Part shown: one piece after another, positions 4,815 through 30,534 of the stretch | Position numbering within the stretch: the first letter of the stretch is position 1 | Layout of the letters: every line of letters begins with the position of its first letter | Source of the DNA: a virus | Lineage: Duplodnaviria > Heunggongvirae > Uroviricota > Caudoviricetes | Length of the DNA stretch: 64,000 bases | IMG/VR virus record: IMGVR_UViG_3300027963_000050 | Reading direction: 5' to 3' (one strand) | Notes under the pieces: generated by a model | What the model was told of the DNA's origin: nothing | The model's input: the letters and a program-made list of their open reading frames with translations, nothing else | The model's database searches: none | Program-made: the position numbers and the translations under genes

Positions 4815-4864
4815 CCAAAAAAAGGGGGCGGGGGGATTGACAAACGACCGGAGGGAGTTCGGGT
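4815..4864. repeat. GC-rich 47-bp repeat copy 1 (AAAAAAGGGGGCGGGGGGATTGACAAACGACCGGAGGGAGTTCGGGT)
   Basis: Near-identical to 5431..5480. GC island in an AT-rich genome, about 45 nt upstream of a minus-strand start codon. On the minus strand it reads TCAATCCCCCCGCCCCCTTTTTTG. Confidence 0.8.
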
Positions 4865-4875
4865 CCGGAAAGACA

Positions 4876-4912
4876 TAAAAAAACCCACTCGTTAAAGTGG
4901 GGTTATATTTTT
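4876..4912. terminator. intrinsic terminator hairpin (CCCACT-cgttaa-AGTGGG)
   Basis: A-tract/stem/T-tract at the stop of 4911..5402. Confidence 0.65.
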
Positions 4913-5402: not shown

Positions 5403-5430
5403 AATATTATTTTATTATAAATATATCGTT

Positions 5431-5480
5431 CCACAAAAAAGGGGGCGGGGGGATTGACAAACGACCGGAGGGAGTTCGGG
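5431..5480. repeat. GC-rich 47-bp repeat copy 2
   Basis: Same 47-mer as 4815..4864, ending at the stop codon of 5481..6500. Confidence 0.8.
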
Positions 5481-6500
5481 TTACGTCGGGTCCGTCAATA
5501 AGATACAAATTACCTTGCAACTATACTTCTTCTTTCCCGTACTCTTATGATTATACACATATTCCACAACGCGGGGGGAATCAAAATTAATATCTTTAAT
5601 TTTATCCTCAATACCTTCCAAATCATAGTTCCCATCAATGTTAATCACAAACACTCTTGGAACATTAGAAAACCTTGCCTCATCCCCATACATCATAAGA
5701 TACTTACATACCTCATACGGGTCATTAATGGAAGACTCCCTCCAATTATCACCATAATCCCTCTTATACTCATTAGTGGTACTCTTGGAAACCTTTTGGT
5801 CAAACCCCTCCCCATTAATAAAGAAATCAAGACCCTTCTTCTTACCAAAGGTGGGGATAATATCAATATTACTGTTGAACATCAAATACTCAATGTAGTC
5901 ATTTTTCAACGTACTAAAAATTTTTAAATAACAATACTGTTTGGTATCGACAGTGTGTTTTTTATACGAAGATTCAAATAACTCAGGATTATAAACAGAT
6001 GGAAAAGTAACAGTTCTTGTTACGTAAGAATCATAGTTATTGGCAACATACGGATACTCATATTCTAAATACCCATCATTACGATACATCTCTTGGTAAA
6101 CCTTGAATACCTGCTTAGCGTTCCGACAATTCTTATACTTGTCACTCAATACATACATATCTCTCAATACATCCCGACAACTTATATATTCCCAATGATT
6201 AACAATGTAATCTGTAACATCCCCAATCTTTGAAATGTCCAAAACCTCATCACCCTTACGGTTTTTCTTAACCGGAACATTCCACTTATCCTTCATAAGT
6301 CTTAAGAATTCCAACCCCCTGTTTAAGTTACCAAGTATAGACTTAACCTGTTCCCTCTCTATTCCATTCATTATATTCATATCATAAAGATAACACATTC
6401 CCCCTTTACAATCAATTTTTTTCCAGAAAATTTTTTCATATCTCATATTCCGATATACGATATGAACCCATCCGGAAATTTTCCGGATTACTATAAACAA
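5481..6500 (-). CDS. hypothetical protein (339 aa)
   Basis: Long ORF. No recognisable motif. Confidence 0.5.
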   Translation of the reverse strand: MFIVIRKISGWVHIVYRNMRYEKIFWKKIDCKGGMCYLYDMNIMNGIEREQVKSILGNLNRGLEFLRLMKDKWNVPVKKNRKGDEVLDISKIGDVTDYIVNHWEYISCRDVLRDMYVLSDKYKNCRNAKQVFKVYQEMYRNDGYLEYEYPYVANNYDSYVTRTVTFPSVYNPELFESSYKKHTVDTKQYCYLKIFSTLKNDYIEYLMFNSNIDIIPTFGKKKGLDFFINGEGFDQKVSKSTTNEYKRDYGDNWRESSINDPYEVCKYLMMYGDEARFSNVPRVFVINIDGNYDLEGIEDKIKDINFDSPRVVEYVYNHKSTGKKKYSCKVICILLTDPT

Positions 6501-6816: not shown

Positions 6817-6969
6817 AATATTGTTTTATATATAAATATACACAACCCCACAAATGGGGGAAATTTTTTCCCAAAAATTTTTTTAGAATTTTCTGAACAA
6901 TTTACCCATAAAGTTTTTTTTAGACATACACATTGCAAAAGGGATTATCCCCCTATATGACACACAGAA

Positions 6970-7085
6970 CCCGGAGGGGAGGGAGGGGGGATACGTCCCC
7001 CACGTACAGGGGAGGGGTATAGGGGGTTATTATGGGGAGGGGTGACAAAAAAACCCCCCTGTAAAAGATGGGGGGAGAGGGTGTA
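6970..7085 (+). repeat. G-run tract (GGGG/GGGGGG x about 9) with embedded CCCCCC-N10-GGGGGG hairpin/terminator (7045-7078)
   Basis: Sequence cccggaggggagggaggggggatacgtcccccacgtacaggggaggggtatagggggttattatggggaggggtgac... in an otherwise 30% GC context. The hairpin lies downstream of the 7153..7614 stop. Confidence 0.6.
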
Positions 7086-7152
7086 TATTTAATATATCCA
7101 AATGATATAGGGAAAAGTTATCAACCTGACAGGGTGACAGTTGTTAATAACT

Positions 7153-7614
7153 TTATTTGGTTGTGGATATAAAGTTATCAACAGTTAATCTACGTGGGGT
7201 CTTCTGAGGTGGGTCCCCATCTTTGGCTAAGATTGATTTAAAGTCGTATGTTGTTTTCATATCTTGGGGGATGTGTTCGTATAGTTCCTCAAGGGTCTTC
7301 TCTAACTTCCTTCTTAGGTCAAACATAGTTGAGTCTTCTTGAGGGTATTCAAAGTAACCACCTAAGGCATAAGTCTTTGTATCTCTTTCATCAGGTTGGG
7401 GTTCAAGTAGTACCCTCTTCCAATAGGGGTTCATTCTTAGTCCGGAGTAATCTGATAGTTCAAAGAAGTTAACATATACATCTATCCCCGTCATTGTGTT
7501 ATACTTATTCCAATCCTTAGTTAGGGACCATCCTTTAACGAAGGGGTATTTCTTTGATAATGCTTTGACTGAGATGTCTATCCCTCTATGTTCTTTATTA
7601 GATAATTGTTCCAT
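7153..7614 (-). CDS. hypothetical protein (153 aa), GC-richer than neighbours
   Basis: ORF. Its codon composition is noticeably more GC-rich than surrounding genes. Confidence 0.45.
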   Translation of the reverse strand: MEQLSNKEHRGIDISVKALSKKYPFVKGWSLTKDWNKYNTMTGIDVYVNFFELSDYSGLRMNPYWKRVLLEPQPDERDTKTYALGGYFEYPQEDSTMFDLRRKLEKTLEELYEHIPQDMKTTYDFKSILAKDGDPPQKTPRRLTVDNFISTTK

Positions 7615-7642
7615 AGTAATAAATATATTGAAAATAAATTAA

Positions 7643-7692
7643 ATAATCCCCCTTTTTGTTTGGTGGTTAAATTTATTATTCGTACCTTTGTA
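7643..7692 (+). promoter_or_regulatory. Bacteroidetes-type promoter 1: AATCCCCC upstream element, TTTG(-33), 20 nt, TAccTTTG(-7)
   Basis: aataatccccctttttgtttggtggttaaatttattattcgTAccTTTGta. Confidence 0.5.
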
Positions 7693-7840
7693 TCACTGAA
7701 TTGGTAACCAACCCAACAGGGGGCGTACCGAGTGGTGGAAGAGTAGACTCCAACCTGCTTTATATTTTTTATATAAATCCCCCATCTTTACTGAGAATCT
7801 CATAATCAACCCTACGTGGTTTTGAAAAAATAGTGTAATG

Positions 7841-7886
7841 AATCCCCCCTTTTGTTGTGAATGTCATAATTTATTTATATCTTTGT
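7841..7886 (+). promoter_or_regulatory. Bacteroidetes-type promoter 2 (duplicate of promoter 1 architecture): AATCCCCCC, TTTG, 20 nt, TAtcTTTG
   Basis: aatccccccTTTTGttgtgaatgtcataatttatTTATAtcTTTGtac. Same element order as 7643..7692. Confidence 0.5.
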
Positions 7887-7930
7887 ACTTTGACGGTGGT
7901 TATCACCGGTAACTCTTAATATCTTAAACT

Positions 7931-8101
7931 ATGATTATTCTTATTGTACTACTATGTCTGTCCTTTGTCCTGTTATGTTTTGGTTTCATTCAGGTATTTG
8001 TTATCCCCACTCTATCACCTGATAGTAAGTTACTTAAGTGGTGGGAGAAACATATGGTTATGGAAGACCCCTATGACAGAGGTCCGAGATAAATTCCTCT
8101 A
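7931..8101 (+). CDS. possible small hydrophobic peptide (56 aa, MIILIVLLCLSFVLLCFGFIQVFVIPTLSPD...)
   Basis: ATG about 45 nt downstream of promoter 2. Predicted N-terminal TM helix. Below the ORF-track size cut-off. Overlaps the 3' end of the minus ORF 8058..8396. Confidence 0.25.
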
Positions 8102-8396
8102 CCTTCTTTAGGGAATGGTTTCTAATGTTCATTGACATATCGGTTAAATCATTCTCTGATAGTGGGGAGTCCATATGAATCTTCTCTATGATATCCCCCA
8201 TATCTACATTGGTTAGTAATAACACTTCCTGCTTTATTCTATTCCCGGACTTGAATAGTTCATATTCACAGGTACCCGAGAAGTTCCCATAGGAATAAAT
8301 CACACTATATTGTGTGTCATTTTGTCTTACTTCCGTATTAAAATCATTTAGGTACATAATTGTTGATAACTTTTTTATAAATATAGTTATTAACAT
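8058..8396 (-). CDS. hypothetical protein (112 aa)
   Basis: ORF in a gene-poor region. Confidence 0.35.
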   Translation of the reverse strand: MLITIFIKKLSTIMYLNDFNTEVRQNDTQYSVIYSYGNFSGTCEYELFKSGNRIKQEVLLLTNVDMGDIIEKIHMDSPLSENDLTDMSMNIRNHSLKKVEEFISDLCHRGLP

Positions 8397-8873
8397 TTAT
8401 GTTGTACATACTCTCAGGGGGGATTGTTAATAACTTTTTATGTTAAAATTCTTGATTTTGACAAAATGTCAGTCTCTTTTCACGATGGGGATAATCTTTT
8501 TCCCCACTTTTACCCCCATTTAACTTACACACTCTACCACTTTTTACCACCGGTTATGGTCCTGACGCTATGTAGAACGTCACTTTTTCCCCTCTGTAGG
8601 GGTCTGTAGGACCAATAAATTAGGTATATACGTTTCCCAGTAAATTATGTAAGTAATGGTACATTACGCGTGGGAACCGTTAGGTGTTAGAAAGGTATCT
8701 TCAACGACCACTTTAGTGGGGTATAATTAACCTCTAATGAACGAACTTAACGATTCATATATGGGACACCATAGAGACACAAAATACCATTAAAAGTTAT
8801 CTTTCATATCAACCTTGTGAGTTTTAAACTGACTACAGTGATACAAAACATAACTTATTATAACATCCACTAA

Positions 8874-8925
8874 TGTTCATTTAATTCCATTGTTCATTGC
8901 AAATGAACATCTATTAATAATGAAC
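8874..8925. promoter_or_regulatory. nested palindromic operator: TGTTCAT-N10-TGTTCATTGCAAATGAACA-N9-ATGAACA (4 half sites)
   Basis: Perfect 8-bp inverted repeat at 8891-8909 plus two symmetric outer half sites at 8874-8880 and 8919-8925. Confidence 0.55.
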
Positions 8926-9069
8926 ACCATACGGATTACTAATCGTGTCTGTAGTTTGTCCCCCTTCTTAATGGGGGGACGAAGTCCCCAATATAATGGG
9001 GGGAATATGTATACATTATTGAGTTTTTTATACATATGGAAGTTGACGTGTATAAATAAATGGATTTCT

Positions 9070-9175
9070 TATACATATACGTATTTATCCGTATATATAC
9101 GAAAATGATACGATATATATTATATTATACATTATGTGGTATATTGTGGGTTTTTGTATATTATAATGTACAAGA
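9070..9175. repeat. AT-rich tract with ATACG/CGTAT palindromes (CGTATATATACG at 9090-9101)
   Basis: tatacatatacgtatttatccgtatatatacgaaaatgatacgatatatattatattatacattatg. Possible DNA unwinding element or binding sites. Confidence 0.5.
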
Positions 9176-9224
9176 AAATAGTAAAGGATGAAACTATGAG
9201 TGAATTCCGGAGTGAAACGTAGGA

Positions 9225-9428
9225 CTATGAACGAATAGATTTATCGTTTAGTATTTTTCTATATATTGAGTGTAACCTTTTACTCTCCTGTTCTATCACA
9301 TCTTCCGCCATAAAAAGAAGTTGTTTTTCCTCCTCTGTCTCAAAACCTGTTCTTACAATACATAACGCCTCTAATAATGTTAATTCTTCCATAGTGTTAA
9401 TTATAAGTAATTCCCCCCGGTTAATCAA
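9225..9428 (-). CDS. small hypothetical protein (about 55-67 aa)
   Basis: Short ORF at the edge of the non-coding hub. May start at the internal MEELTLLEA. Confidence 0.3.
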   Translation of the reverse strand: MINRGELLIINTMEELTLLEALCIVRTGFETEEEKQLLFMAEDVIEQESKRLHSIYRKILNDKSIRS

Positions 9429-9438
9429 TAAAATGTTT

Positions 9439-9446
9439 TATCTTTG
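9439..9446 (+). promoter_or_regulatory. TAtcTTTG -7 box driving the 5-gene tandem array
   Basis: tttTAtcTTTGtatgatatttatattgatATGaaaATG. The ATG of the first array gene is about 19 nt downstream. Confidence 0.5.
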
Positions 9447-9464
9447 TATGATATTTATATTGAT

Positions 9465-9734
9465 ATGAAAATGATTATAAGTGAAAGTAGAATGTATAAT
9501 GTGTTTGTGAAATATATTGATTCACAATATGACTTATCATACAATATTAAAACCCGAGAATTTATAGATAAAAATAATAATATCTTTGGATATGTTGGGG
9601 GAGGAGTATTTTATTATGGTGGTTTATCTACGGAATTAAACTTGGAAGGGTTCTTTGGTAATAAAACAAATAAGATGTTAAAAATTTATTTGAGAGATAA
9701 ATTTCCTGATACACCTATATACTCTATTGAATAA
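9465..9734 (+). CDS. leader-family-1 tandem array member 1 (MKMIISESR...)
   Basis: Track ORF 9444..9734 starts at a TTG inside the promoter box. The ATG at 9465 gives the MKMIISES leader. Confidence 0.6.
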   Translation: MKMIISESRMYNVFVKYIDSQYDLSYNIKTREFIDKNNNIFGYVGGGVFYYGGLSTELNLEGFFGNKTNKMLKIYLRDKFPDTPIYSIE

Positions 9735-9746
9735 TCCCCACGCTTT

Positions 9747-10094
9747 ATGAAATTGATTATAACTGAAAGTAGAAGAAATGATGTCGTAACCAAATGGTTG
9801 GATAGGAAGTATAGTAATTTAATACCAAGACAATATAGTGTATTTACCTCATTTGATGATGAATCAGGTAATAGTGTGTTTTCATATAGTTACGGAGATA
9901 TTACAATTGTAAGTCCTGACCTACAATACGATTTATTTAATATGTTTAACTTAAAAAGATATGACTTAAATCAAATCATTAAACCTTGGGTTGAACAAAC
10001 ATATGGTATAGATGTTGATTTGGTTCAGTACACTACTTGGCATTGTAATAACTGTGGTATGTATCATCCTACTAAACATCATATTATAGAATAA
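9747..10094 (+). CDS. leader-family-1 tandem array member 2 (MKLIITESRRNDVVTKWLD...)
   Basis: Preceded by the conserved junction TAATCCCCACGCTTTATG. Paralog of 10107..10421 (shared VVTKWLD). Confidence 0.65.
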   Translation: MKLIITESRRNDVVTKWLDRKYSNLIPRQYSVFTSFDDESGNSVFSYSYGDITIVSPDLQYDLFNMFNLKRYDLNQIIKPWVEQTYGIDVDLVQYTTWHCNNCGMYHPTKHHIIE

Positions 10095-10106
10095 TCCCCA
10101 CGCCTT

Positions 10107-10421
10107 ATGAAATTAATAATAACTGAAAATAAAATGAGTAGTGTTGTAACCAAATGGTTGGATAATAGCTATGGTGATTTAAGAAAGTCCGCATCTCCTA
10201 TGAATTTTAGATTCATCCACTACAAAGATAAAAATAATCAGACCGTCTTTTTGTTTAATCGTGACACCGGTACAGTTACCATAACTAATAAATCGGTATA
10301 CCATTATTTGAAAGATATGTTTGGTCTTAGTGGTTATGAGTTAAATGTTATCTTAATCCCTTGGTTTATAGAAAGATATAATCTACACGTTGAGAAAGTC
10401 CAATATAGTGACTTACATTAA
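10107..10421 (+). CDS. leader-family-1 tandem array member 3 (MKLIITENKMSSVVTKWLD...)
   Basis: Junction TAATCCCCACGCCTTATG. Confidence 0.65.
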   Translation: MKLIITENKMSSVVTKWLDNSYGDLRKSASPMNFRFIHYKDKNNQTVFLFNRDTGTVTITNKSVYHYLKDMFGLSGYELNVILIPWFIERYNLHVEKVQYSDLH

Positions 10422-10436
10422 TCCCCACGCCTTATT

Positions 10437-10739
10437 ATGAAACTAATTATTACAGAGAGTAAATTTTATAAGATGTTCGCCAAGTTTATGGACGACTATT
10501 TCGGTTTAACATATAAGGCCGTTAAGAAAAAATATTATGATGTTGACGCAATTGAATATATCTTTACAACCAAAGATGGTGATACGTTTGGTAGGTCATT
10601 TGAAAATGATACTTTCACGTATAGTTATGATAAGTATATTATAATTGATTCTTTCTTTGGTGATAAAACAGATGAACTATTATTACAATACCTTAATGAT
10701 AAATTTGGAGATTCTGTTAGAATTAGAAGAATATCTTAA
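10437..10739 (+). CDS. leader-family-1 tandem array member 4 (MKLIITESKFYKMF...)
   Basis: Junction TAATCCCCACGCCTTATTATG. Confidence 0.65.
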   Translation: MKLIITESKFYKMFAKFMDDYFGLTYKAVKKKYYDVDAIEYIFTTKDGDTFGRSFENDTFTYSYDKYIIIDSFFGDKTDELLLQYLNDKFGDSVRIRRIS

Positions 10740-10752
10740 TCCCCCACGCTTT

Positions 10753-11187
10753 ATGAAAGTAATTATAACTGAAAGTAGAATAGAAGAAATAATACAAAAA
10801 TCCTTATCCATCGTATTTGGTGGGTTTGAGGATATAACTTGGAGTTGGGCCGACTTTAATTGTGGTTGGGGTGTTTGTTGTGATATATATGCCGTTGGAT
10901 TTGTTTTACCTAATACTGACCACGATGAATATATCTTTAAGTTGGCTGATGGTAAACACTATGATGATGATGGAGATTACCCGGAAGAAATGAAAGGTGA
11001 ACTACCTGAAGAATGTTATAACCAACCTGATTTATATGACCCCCGATTTGATACAATCGTATTCTATGAAGAGTATGCTGAGAAATTGGAAAACTTCTTG
11101 GGTCCGTTAGATAAAGTTAAAACCCCATTGTTAAATGTCCTAAATGAAATGTTTGGTATGGATGCTAAGGTAATTATTGTTATATAA
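10753..11187 (+). CDS. leader-family-1 tandem array member 5 (MKVIITESRIEE...)
   Basis: Track ORF 10645..11187. The ATG at 10753 follows the conserved junction TAATCCCCCACGCTTTATG and gives the leader. Confidence 0.65.
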   Translation: MKVIITESRIEEIIQKSLSIVFGGFEDITWSWADFNCGWGVCCDIYAVGFVLPNTDHDEYIFKLADGKHYDDDGDYPEEMKGELPEECYNQPDLYDPRFDTIVFYEEYAEKLENFLGPLDKVKTPLLNVLNEMFGMDAKVIIVI

Positions 11188-29823: not shown

Positions 29824-30534
29824 TTAAGTCCAATAATTATGTTCCTTTGTAAAGAACTCATCGTTATTTCTATTAAACCAAGATTTAATCATCATCTTAA
29901 CCATATAGAATAAACCTTTGTTCTTGAATCGTCTTGATGTGGTATAAACAATTTTGTCCGCTACATAAAACTTATTTGGTTTTATCTTTGAACTTAAATG
30001 ATAATCCTCAGCAAACTTATCATCCGGATTAAATCCTCCCAATGAATTGAATACCTCTAAATTAAATAACATAAATCCTCCAACCGCAAATGGTGTAAAG
30101 AATTTGGTTAAGTATTGGATAACATCAAATGATTTATATACATAATTATACTTACCATCGTCAGTTCTTATTTTGGTTGTGGATAAATGATAATCATTTT
30201 CTTTCATTTGTTCAACCATCTCCTTCAACAAATTATAATCGTTCAGGTATATGTCCGCATCCAAGAATAAAACATAGGGTGTCGTTATCTTTTTGGTTCC
30301 ATTGTTTCTGGCTTCAGCAGGAAATCCTCCCTTAATAATCTTTACATTAATATTGGTATGATATGAACCAAGAATACATTTTTGCGTATATCCGTTGTCC
30401 GTTGAAGAATCGGCAACCATAACATTTACACCTTTGATATTAGTTTGCAGGTTTAACAATCCTAAAGTTTTCTTTATAATTAACCCCTCGTTTTTGCAGG
30501 GTATGACTATTGTTAAATCTTTACTTAAACTCAT
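29824..30534 (-). CDS. family-2 glycosyltransferase (GT-A fold)
   Basis: LTIVIPCKNE ... VLFLDADIY (DxD). Confidence 0.7.
   Translation of the reverse strand: MSLSKDLTIVIPCKNEGLIIKKTLGLLNLQTNIKGVNVMVADSSTDNGYTQKCILGSYHTNINVKIIKGGFPAEARNNGTKKITTPYVLFLDADIYLNDYNLLKEMVEQMKENDYHLSTTKIRTDDGKYNYVYKSFDVIQYLTKFFTPFAVGGFMLFNLEVFNSLGGFNPDDKFAEDYHLSSKIKPNKFYVADKIVYTTSRRFKNKGLFYMVKMMIKSWFNRNNDEFFTKEHNYWT

Follow-up and report, generated by a model that had tools for sequence, protein, structure and literature searches.

What is the function of a 2.6 kb stretch that is poor in genes and lies in an otherwise densely coding phage genome? The stretch in question (positions 6817-9440, hereafter the block) is part of a 64,000-nucleotide (nt) segment of a Caudoviricetes genome, IMG/VR record IMGVR_UViG_3300027963_000050; we refer to this whole segment as the window. 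A first-pass annotation, made from the letters of the window, had proposed that the block is a replication origin or a regulatory hub. The hub is in agreement with our results, as the block harbors promoters, conserved motifs, palindromes, and structured RNAs; most of the arguments for an origin, however, fail. We favor, with moderate confidence, the reading that the block, acting mainly via transcription and RNA, is the conserved non-coding core of an accessory module that is expressed early.

We covered the window greedily with ATG-initiated open reading frames (ORFs). The coding share is 44% within the block and 90.6% outside of it, which bears out its description as gene-poor. Of the four largest uncovered gaps in the window, three are in the block (8397-8919, 7615-8057, and 6817-7152); the first of these three is closed by a spurious ORF, without which it extends to 9224 (828 nt). 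The claim that the block contains only two doubtful ORFs was wrong: ORF153, ORF99, and ORF53 are real, conserved genes. The other sub-features that had been listed all exist, two of them (a G/C hairpin and the second of two palindromes) at coordinates that were off by 10-16 nt. The G+C content of the window is 31.8%. No transfer RNA (tRNA) genes were found in a scan of the window for tRNA and transfer-messenger RNA (tmRNA), and the whole window had no match in Rfam 15 at the gathering thresholds. The larger ORFs of the window include virion-type Laminin_G_3 proteins, a DNA methylase, DnaJ, an SPFH protein, and a glutamine-synthetase-like protein.

Searches of INPHARED (50,697 deposited phage genomes) by DNA, in near and distant modes, and with the ORF99 protein revealed nothing similar; no paper turned up when the literature was searched for strings of the sequence. 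One IMG/VR relative is syntenic over the block with 72-76% identity, and a search with cores of 18-21 nt recovered nine IMG/VR loci and at least 118 lake and marine metagenome contigs. The related IMG/VR contigs span 175-340 kb. When the loci were mapped onto the window, the non-coding pieces 6850-7150, 7600-7930, and 8350-9260 were common to 20-95 loci, the flanking genes to 1-10. Because of this distribution, the non-coding DNA is the conserved core of a variable neighborhood. The identity of the non-coding pieces is 70-95% in dozens of related phage contigs. From the promoter type (see below), one homologue labelled 'Bacteroidetes MAG', and the sizes of the related contigs, we infer that the source is an uncultured aquatic jumbo phage with a Bacteroidota host. 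Gene strands diverge locally: the genes to the left of the block are on the - strand, those at 9465-11187 on the + strand.

Two promoters, 195 bp apart and both on the + strand, have a 30-nt repeat in common. They and the stem-loop that follows the second are:

7643-7690, + strand: promoter P1, with a AATCCCCC upstream box, a -33 TTTG at 7659-7662, and a -7 TACCTTTG at 7683-7690
7841-7885, + strand: promoter P2, with a AATCCCCCC box, a -33 TTTG at 7851-7854, and a -7 TATCTTTG at 7878-7885
7894-7908, + strand: stem-loop or palindrome CGGTG-GTTAT-CACCG, at +5 of the P2 transcript

The sigma-A promoters of Flavobacterium psychrophilum have the elements -33 TTTG and -7 TAnnTTTG, the -7 box being located at -12 to -5 (PMC9723704). 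We counted as a match every -7 TAnnTTTG with TTTG or TTG as the -33 element 17-23 nt upstream. The window contains 14 such full matches, P1 and P2 among them, against about five expected; promoters of this type are scattered through the intergenic regions of the window. P1 and P2 have both elements at the expected spacing, and TACCTTTG and TATCTTTG fit the consensus. They differ from the described host consensus (PMC9723704) in the extra AATCCCCC(C) box that precedes both. This ATCCCC(C) box occurs in 11 copies at 4.8-10.8 kb, each on the same strand as the gene downstream of it, and the rest of the 64 kb contains a single copy; besides P1 and P2 the box precedes several other gene starts at 4.8-10.8 kb. 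It could be part of a phage-specific promoter or activator site. The twin strong promoters that had been annotated here are thus both present, and their type is Bacteroidota sigma-A; a scan for Escherichia coli-type promoters, in contrast, revealed no enrichment in the window (21 found, 19.7 expected). With the -7 box placed as in F. psychrophilum (PMC9723704), transcription is predicted to start at about 7695 from P1 and at about 7890 from P2.

Of 14 loci, 10 keep the stem-loop at 7894-7908 and four have lost it by a clean deletion. Two loci carry a U-G wobble variant that pairs only on the + strand, which favors a 5' mRNA stem-loop over an operator. Of the annotated palindromes, the first was read at 7895-7909, and the second is located at 8012-8025, not at 8028-8041; the latter lies within ORF53, the gene that follows the stem-loop, is not conserved, and is a by-product of the coding sequence.

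The approximately 80 nt 3' of P1 show only three differences from the first relative and contain no ORF. Two features are found here:

7695-7765, + strand: structured small RNA without an ORF, about 70 nt, the 3' end being uncertain
7759-7777, + strand: A/T-only palindrome TTTATAT-TTTT-ATATAAA, directly 3' of the small RNA

The small RNA consists of a 5' hairpin, whose helix we call the P1 stem (CUG-AA-UUGG / CCAA-CAG), GGGGGCGNACC, a hairpin ACC/GGU, and an invariant 3' hairpin GGUGGAAGAGUAGACUCC. Among 98 unique homologues, nearly all have a TAnnTTTG box immediately 5' of the small RNA. The order of elements in the homologues is a variable hairpin, GGGCGNACC, a linker of varying length, and the invariant GGUGGAAGAGUAGACUCC; because the linker lengths vary out of frame (they are not multiples of three), we read the element as a small RNA without an ORF. 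In a MAFFT alignment (A5), five of the seven pairs of the P1 stem are compensatory, 99% of the cells pair, and none of 500 shuffles reached the score; slid registers of the 5' hairpin likewise came nowhere near the observed covariation score. An alignment of 94 matches (A8) gave nine compensatory pairs out of 14, with 96.5% of the cells pairing. The invariant 3' hairpin is uninformative on covariation, either way. The predicted 5' end of the small RNA coincides with the base of the covarying stem.

A covariance model of the small RNA (R1) found a single copy in the window (7691-7763, 96 bits) and 94 matches over the 94 sources searched; 91 of 94 sequences were matched, and two distant phages contain extra, diverged copies. 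The latter are located in L125 (3263-3340 and 4489-4556) and L089 (1232-1291), at a distance of 1.2-1.6 kb from the main copy. At least 118 metagenome contigs and nine IMG/VR contigs of up to 340 kb contain the 18-nt core. In 185,579 bacterial and archaeal genomes the core was not found as an RNA gene, and the search returned only two unrelated coding hits. Comparison of the block and the small RNA with Rfam 15 up to E = 10 gave chance-level hits only, and when the window and 33 related loci were scanned for tRNA and tmRNA genes, no association with the small RNA emerged. We conclude from covariation and distribution that the small RNA represents a new family of phage-borne structured RNA. The adjacent palindrome at 7759-7777 keeps its A/T palindromic character in relatives, while its sequence varies; it might serve as a weak terminator or as a site.

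The invariant GGGGGCG of the small RNA (7719-7725) is complementary to CGCCCCC at 4824-4830 and 5441-5447. The possibility that the repeated promoter units at these positions are targets of the small RNA was rejected: the best non-self duplex has -48 kcal/mol, with a z-score of only -3.5 (2556 windows), and the second copy has -32.

Several phage small RNAs are transcribed from strong promoters of their own, including the phi29 pRNA, the P4 CI RNA, ToxI-type antitoxin RNAs, and RNA anti-CRISPRs. The small RNA described here, known to us from sequence, resembles these in being short, ORF-less, and provided with its own consensus promoter in an early region, and also in its strong conservation and covarying structure. 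It differs from them in that it has no Rfam match, no repeat array, and no similarity to a CRISPR repeat, and is not located at a genome end.

A second RNA element lies at the other end of the block:

about 9178-9258 (80 nt), + strand: long imperfect hairpin of 28 pairs, with a covarying apex and approximately 95% identity across relatives

In the apex of this hairpin two pairs switch jointly, from GU...AC to AC...GU, in eight of 18 sequences. The basal helix contains two covarying pairs, which makes four compensatory pairs in all, and several positions vary only from U-A to U-G. The predicted fold has -22 kcal/mol (z-score -3.9) on the + strand and -7.6 kcal/mol (z-score -0.4) on the - strand. 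Similarly, the covariance model (R2) scores 115 bits on the + strand versus 35 on the - strand. There is one copy in each of 26 loci, in every one of them on the same strand as the small RNA. Searches of Rfam at permissive E-values returned nothing beyond chance. The conserved hairpin contains a mini-ORF of eight codons (MSEFRSET; 9194-9220, + strand, ATGAGTGAATTCCGG...TAG), with an AAGGA box 7 nt upstream; the position of its stop codon is kept in most relatives, and changes in the paired apex alter its last three codons. Flanked by an A run and a U run, the hairpin may double as a terminator; its sequence conservation goes far beyond what a terminator needs.

Does the block in addition contain an origin? 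The repeated DNA sites bear on this question:

6938-6953, + strand: AAAGGGATTATCCCCC box, an inverted copy of the GGGGATAATC at 8487-8496, conserved in 29 loci
7115-7153, both strands: composite cluster A, with AAGTTATCAAC, TGACAG at 7127 and 7135 (GG between them, 8-bp period), and TTGTTAATAACTT
8358-8472, both strands: composite cluster B, with 13-mers at 8360-8372, 8384-8396, and 8424-8436, a ATCCCCCC box at 8418-8424 (- strand), and TGACAAAATGTCAG at 8459-8472
8794-8856, both strands: imperfect palindrome of 62 nt, with the words AAGTTAT, TATCA, and GTGAG/CTGAC, which are shared with other repeats
8873-8927, both strands: nested array of two forward and two reverse half-sites, ATGTTCAT (8873), TTGTTCAT (8890), ATGAACAT (8903), and ATGAACAC (8920)

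With at most one mismatch, the 13-mer TTGTTRATAACTT has four matches, all of them within the block, where 1.1 would be expected for the whole window; weaker copies are located at 7115 and 8384. The repeated 13-mers of the annotation are therefore present and confined to the block, and they are conserved as part of larger composites. The formula of these composites is TTGTTRATAAC plus two TGWCAG, and the two clusters, together with the GGGGATAATC boxes and the G-run and C-run tracts, bracket the cassette. Cluster A is kept whole in most of 29 aligned loci; a third 13-mer close to it (7172-7184) is restricted to the source phage and a few relatives. In cluster B, three 13-mers lie within approximately 80 nt upstream of the ORF99 start codon, and GTTAATAAC together with TG(A/T)CA-N3-TGTCAG is kept in all 25 distinct homologue sequences, including the most distant. 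The resulting arrangement (four to six copies in two clusters 1.2 kb apart, in mixed orientation, paired with TGWCAG) is conserved, and, as a sequence pattern, it fits operators as well as iterons. The GGGGATAATC box has exactly two copies in the window, at 6943 (- strand) and 8487 (+ strand), of which the latter is kept in homologues.

The 62-nt palindrome is found in both orientations among relatives, with its mismatches flipped (L034, L110, and L112), and in mosaic forms; hits to the reverse strand in BLAST have 75-92% identity. Both orientations and the mosaic forms point to a symmetric role at the DNA level and to recombination between the arms. This is the only segment that flips among the relatives. 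A larger inverton, formed by the 1.2-kb segment between the 17-nt inverted repeats 7171-7187 and 8357-8373 that flank the promoters, was considered and rejected, as all relatives aligned across the block are colinear.

The four sites that had been described as a nested operator are present, and their half-sites are conserved. The spacers of this TGTTCAT array have diverged, and in L033 one double change is symmetric. Five loci have, instead of the array, an unrelated nested palindrome (GGATTATACC...) of the same layout. Folded as RNA the array has -14.3 kcal/mol (z-score -4.65). Because its inner and outer arms share one word, we consider an operator with several sites, whose specificity differs between lineages, more likely than a pure RNA helix.

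Two further features enter the discussion of an origin; a terminator next to the G-run tract is listed with them:

6973-7042, + strand: G-run tract, GGGGAGGGAGGGGGG, with a hairpin GGGGGA-UACG-UCCCCC at 6986-7001 and a G-quadruplex-type motif at 7009-7042
7047-7075, - strand: intrinsic terminator after ORF153, CCCCCC, a 10-nt loop, GGGGGG, and U7
9010-9175, both strands: AT-rich variable spacer, 77.7% AT, with TTATACAT at 9028, 9069, and 9125, and CGTATATATACG once, at 9090

The density of runs of at least four G or C at 6-9 kb is 5-10 times that in the rest of the window. The G-run tract of the annotation exists. Outside + strand genes, no 80-nt stretch of the + strand is richer in G; the tract also holds the top G-minus-C window and reads C-rich and G-poor on the - strand. 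Its predicted G-quadruplex motif (G4 A G4 TATA G5 N7 G4 A G4) is the sole site in the window with four G3+ runs separated by N1-7. The first G cluster in relatives is G4-A-G3-A-G4-A-G6. Within the tract, GGGGAGGGAGGGGAGGGGGGATAC hardly varies over 29 aligned loci, and a rearranged form is present in the four most distant relatives. In the terminator the stem is kept in relatives and the loop changes.

If the block were a replication origin, the composites of 13-mers and TGWCAG would be iterons for a phage initiator; the promoters and the G tract would provide transcriptional activation, or a primer stabilized by an R-loop or G-quadruplex, on the pattern of the T4 and T7 origins, which combine a promoter with an unwinding element, and of RNA II of ColE1; melting would take place in the AT-rich spacer or the A/T palindrome. 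We regard this as unlikely. Several findings agree with it: the repeated motifs are real and confined to the block, with conservation over 25-29 loci; conservation is higher in the non-coding DNA than in the flanking genes, as it would be in an essential cis element; the G-quadruplex-type tract is conserved at the sequence level; the block has two strong promoters and an AT-rich segment; and the 62-nt palindrome, being free in its orientation, points to a function at the DNA level. The elements that would define an origin fare less well. The DnaA-box-like TTGTGGATAT at 7161-7170 exists; however, it is one of 48 one-mismatch matches in the window and is not conserved in relatives. Five of these 48 (31 expected) are in the block, two of them as by-products of the 13-mers, which places the DnaA-like boxes at background level. 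The only perfect DnaA boxes (TTATCCACA) in the window are at 30178 and 55650, outside the block.

The GC-skew inflection that was expected at the block is absent: within the 64 kb the skew is negative and the cumulative curve falls on both sides, and the one local bump, at 7-11 kb, follows the + strand genes and the G tract. The proposed unwinding element is AT-rich, as described (positions 9020-9170, 151 nt with 77.5% AT, are at the 97.6th percentile of 150-nt windows); however, it is not the most AT-rich part of the window, and its supposedly recurrent palindrome CGTATATATACG occurs once. The spacer is the least conserved part of the block, prone to indels and variable in length, and lies approximately 550 nt from the nearest 13-mer cluster. 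It also tolerates gene insertions: in L005 and L055, homing-type Endonuclease_7 genes (PF02945) are inserted in it, between the G/C hairpins and the 80-nt hairpin. There are only three plus three iteron-like sites, in mixed orientation, and one cluster lies, like an operator, exactly over the upstream region of ORF99. Pfam and PHROG scans of the ORFs within 10 kb revealed no recognizable initiator, helicase, or primase gene, and some distant phages have two or three copies of the small RNA.

Promoter-dependent or iteron-type origins are found in T4 (oriF and oriG), T7 (the primary origin), and lambda (ori), and RNA II of ColE1 is a primer RNA. The block resembles the T4, T7, and lambda origins in its strong promoters next to A/T-rich DNA and its short repeats in a non-coding island; it differs from them in lacking a recognizable linked initiator gene, an evident phased array of direct repeats, a conserved unwinding element, and a skew signal within the 64 kb. 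The inference of an origin from iterons, a DnaA box, and AT-rich DNA thus fails on comparison with relatives. An origin and a regulatory cassette are not mutually exclusive.

Between cluster B and the AT-rich spacer the following elements are found:

8486-8560, + strand: GGGGATAATC box and C-rich tract, almost free of G, with a TACCAC-TTTT-TACCACC repeat; the motifs are conserved
8590-8790, + strand: conserved non-coding block of short linear motifs and small covarying hairpins
8675-8688, 8708-8719, and 8761-8774, + strand: small hairpins within the preceding block, AACC..GGUGUU, CCAC-UUUA-GUGG, and UAUGG-GACA-CCAUA, respectively
8958-9005, + strand: four alternating C and G runs, GUCCCCC, GGGGGGAC, GUCCCC, and GGGGGG

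The segment 8495-8560 contains 23 C and 4 G. The small hairpins occur in paired variants (CCAC/GUGG, CCC/GGG, and CCUC/GAGG; AACAC/GUGUU versus GACAC/GUGUC), and the variant UAUGG/CUAUA has a G-U wobble that is workable only on the + strand. The four C and G runs can pair in alternative ways, either the first with the second and the third with the fourth, or the second with the third; the latter hairpin covaries (GGGGAC/GUCCCC, GGGGAAC/GUUCCCC, and GGGGGAU/AUCCCCC). The predicted fold of 8958-9005 has -27.5 kcal/mol (z-score -2.8). The G/C-clamped hairpin of the first-pass annotation exists, at 8958-8980 rather than at 8968-8990.

These hairpins raise the possibility that 8440-9260 encodes one or two large structured non-coding RNAs, that their function is what the locus is mainly for, and that the DNA sites are incidental RNA helices. 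We consider this decidedly unlikely, although more than one observation is in its favor. Several of the small hairpins covary and have RNA-like tetraloops (UUUA, GUAA, and GUCA), the G-U wobbles pair only on the + strand, and both strands fold better than shuffled sequence. The nested palindrome is swapped in some loci for a different one of the same shape. There is no conserved ORF, and seven distant relatives (the L126 group) have no ATG-initiated ORF of at least 35 amino acids in the equivalent of approximately 750 nt. A small protein starting at the conserved 'MLKFLILTKCQS' (8440) was rejected as a candidate, as its stop codon shifts, the downstream residues are unconstrained, and the ORF is missing in distant relatives. 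On the other side, 8397-9260 contains no promoter of the sigma-A type on either strand. The stretch has no Rfam match, the word shared by the inner and outer stems of the nested palindrome is a better fit to arrays of protein sites, and the 62-nt palindrome occurs in both orientations. The consensus fold of 8470-9012 consists of local hairpins only and favors neither strand.

The conserved hairpins of G and C runs and the repeated motifs in a non-coding island would also suit a packaging signal (pac or cos) or a genome terminus, in which they would serve as recognition sites for terminase. In addition, two public contigs with identical ORF99, L131 (Ga0209596_1007843) and L132, end within approximately 50 nt after the hairpin that reaches 9258; these ends may be due to the assembly breaking off where the conserved island ends. 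The contig ends in other loci are scattered and not stacked, the locus lies well inside a 214.8-kb IMG/VR relative (at about 187 kb), and no terminase gene is recognizable in the window. A role in packaging is highly improbable.

The genes embedded in the block or overlapping its elements are:

7153-7614, - strand: ORF153, member of a fast-evolving family, function not assigned, position conserved
7931-8092, + strand: ORF53, gene for a small (53 amino acids) membrane protein
8058-8357, - strand: ORF99, conserved small alpha/beta protein with 104 homologues of about 100 amino acids
9225-9392, - strand: ORF55, small and poorly conserved, its last 11 codons overlapping the 9178-9258 hairpin

At the DNA level ORF153 seemed to be unique; homologues emerged at the protein level in the same slot. 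A - strand ORF of 128-186 amino acids occupies this slot in 47 of 59 loci examined, and 41 of these 47 are homologous to ORF153 (phmmer E-values from 1e-27 to 1.6e-4). ORF153 had no hits in Pfam or PHROG. Public gene finders call both ORF153 and ORF99. The true start of ORF99 is the ATG at 8357, not the one at 8396; the gene converges on ORF53, with an overlap of 35 nt. ORF99 belongs to no Pfam family, and its AlphaFold model (predicted local distance difference test, pLDDT, 87) has four strands and two helices. The pattern of change in ORF53 is of the coding type: the transmembrane part is variable, and a C-terminal motif IIPxLxPDxKFxKWW is kept in relatives. Pfam and PHROG searches with all local ORFs and 25 other ORFs of the window gave no hit related to replication or DNA binding.

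Taken as the regulatory core of an early accessory module, the block might work as follows. The host RNA polymerase would fire P1 and P2 soon after infection. The small RNA would act in trans, probably by binding a protein via its invariant 3' hairpin. No + strand terminator was found between ORF53 and ORF99, and transcription from P2 would probably continue antisense over ORF99 and through the structured non-coding stretch of 0.9 kb to the 9178-9258 hairpin. The sites formed by the 13-mer and TGWCAG and the TGTTCAT array would be operators for phage regulators that shut off or confine transcription. The neighboring genes would be insulated by the - strand terminator (7047-7075) and by the C-rich tracts, which face outward on each flank. 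Insulation, termination, and promoter modulation by the G and C runs are the least certain parts of this proposal.

Several points weigh against this account. The transcription starts and the 3' ends of the RNAs are predictions, the former from the host consensus; no canonical terminator of the small RNA was found, and the reading of P2 transcription through ORF99 is likewise predicted. The lack of strand preference in the consensus fold of 8470-9012 counts against a transcribed structured stretch as well as against a large RNA. No DNA-binding protein for the sites was identified among the local ORFs: the ORF99 model has no significant fold match in the PDB and no helix-turn-helix or ribbon-helix-helix fold, and the ORF153 model (pLDDT 41) is unusable. 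Finally, the G tract and many linear motifs are more strictly conserved in sequence than insulators or terminators would require, and an added function at the DNA level, such as an origin or a packaging signal, could be involved.

In the hyperplastic regions of T4-type phages, promoter/stem-loop cassettes (PeSLs) have been described (PMC2839356, PMC4122927). The locus resembles PeSLs in that repeated short intergenic units of an early-type promoter and a stem-loop flank small variable genes (here 4819-4890, 5403-5481, and the 30-nt repeat of P1 and P2). It differs from them in the host phylum and promoter type, and the block adds long conserved non-coding stretches and RNA genes. The intergenic unit of approximately 70 nt repeated at 4819-4890 and 5403-5481 (- strand) is located upstream of two small genes and is kept in several relatives; its layout is a stem-loop CCGGA...TCCGG, CAATCCCCCCGCCCCC, a T run, and GG. 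To the right of the block, 9465-11187 (+ strand) contains a tandem array of five paralogous small genes with N-termini MK(L/M/V)IITES(R/K). The later copies in this array are each preceded by TAATCCCCACGC(C/T)TTATG. In front of the first gene lies a third promoter element:

9439-9446, + strand: sigma-A-type -7 box TATCTTTG, 19 nt before the first gene of the five-gene paralogue array

Almost all that is known of the Bacteroidota jumbo phages of lakes and oceans comes from metagenomes, and no studies have addressed their regulation. In the variable accessory region analyzed here, the best-conserved DNA is non-coding. The block supplies candidate operator sites and a conserved predicted G-quadruplex tract, and the R1 and R2 covariance models are searchable markers of the whole phage clade. 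We suggest, tentatively, that the cassette could be an RNA-based locus for host takeover or counter-defense in a large uncultured clade of aquatic Bacteroidota jumbo phages, with the small RNA (GGGCGNACC...GGUGGAAGAGUAGACUCC) and the 80-nt hairpin as two new functional RNA families. Alternatively, an R-loop involving the small RNA, the 80-nt hairpin, and the G tract could prime replication. If the locus does serve host takeover or counter-defense, the RNAs could be protein decoys, sponges, or parts of ribonucleoproteins, and the G-quadruplex tract and the operators would time their expression.

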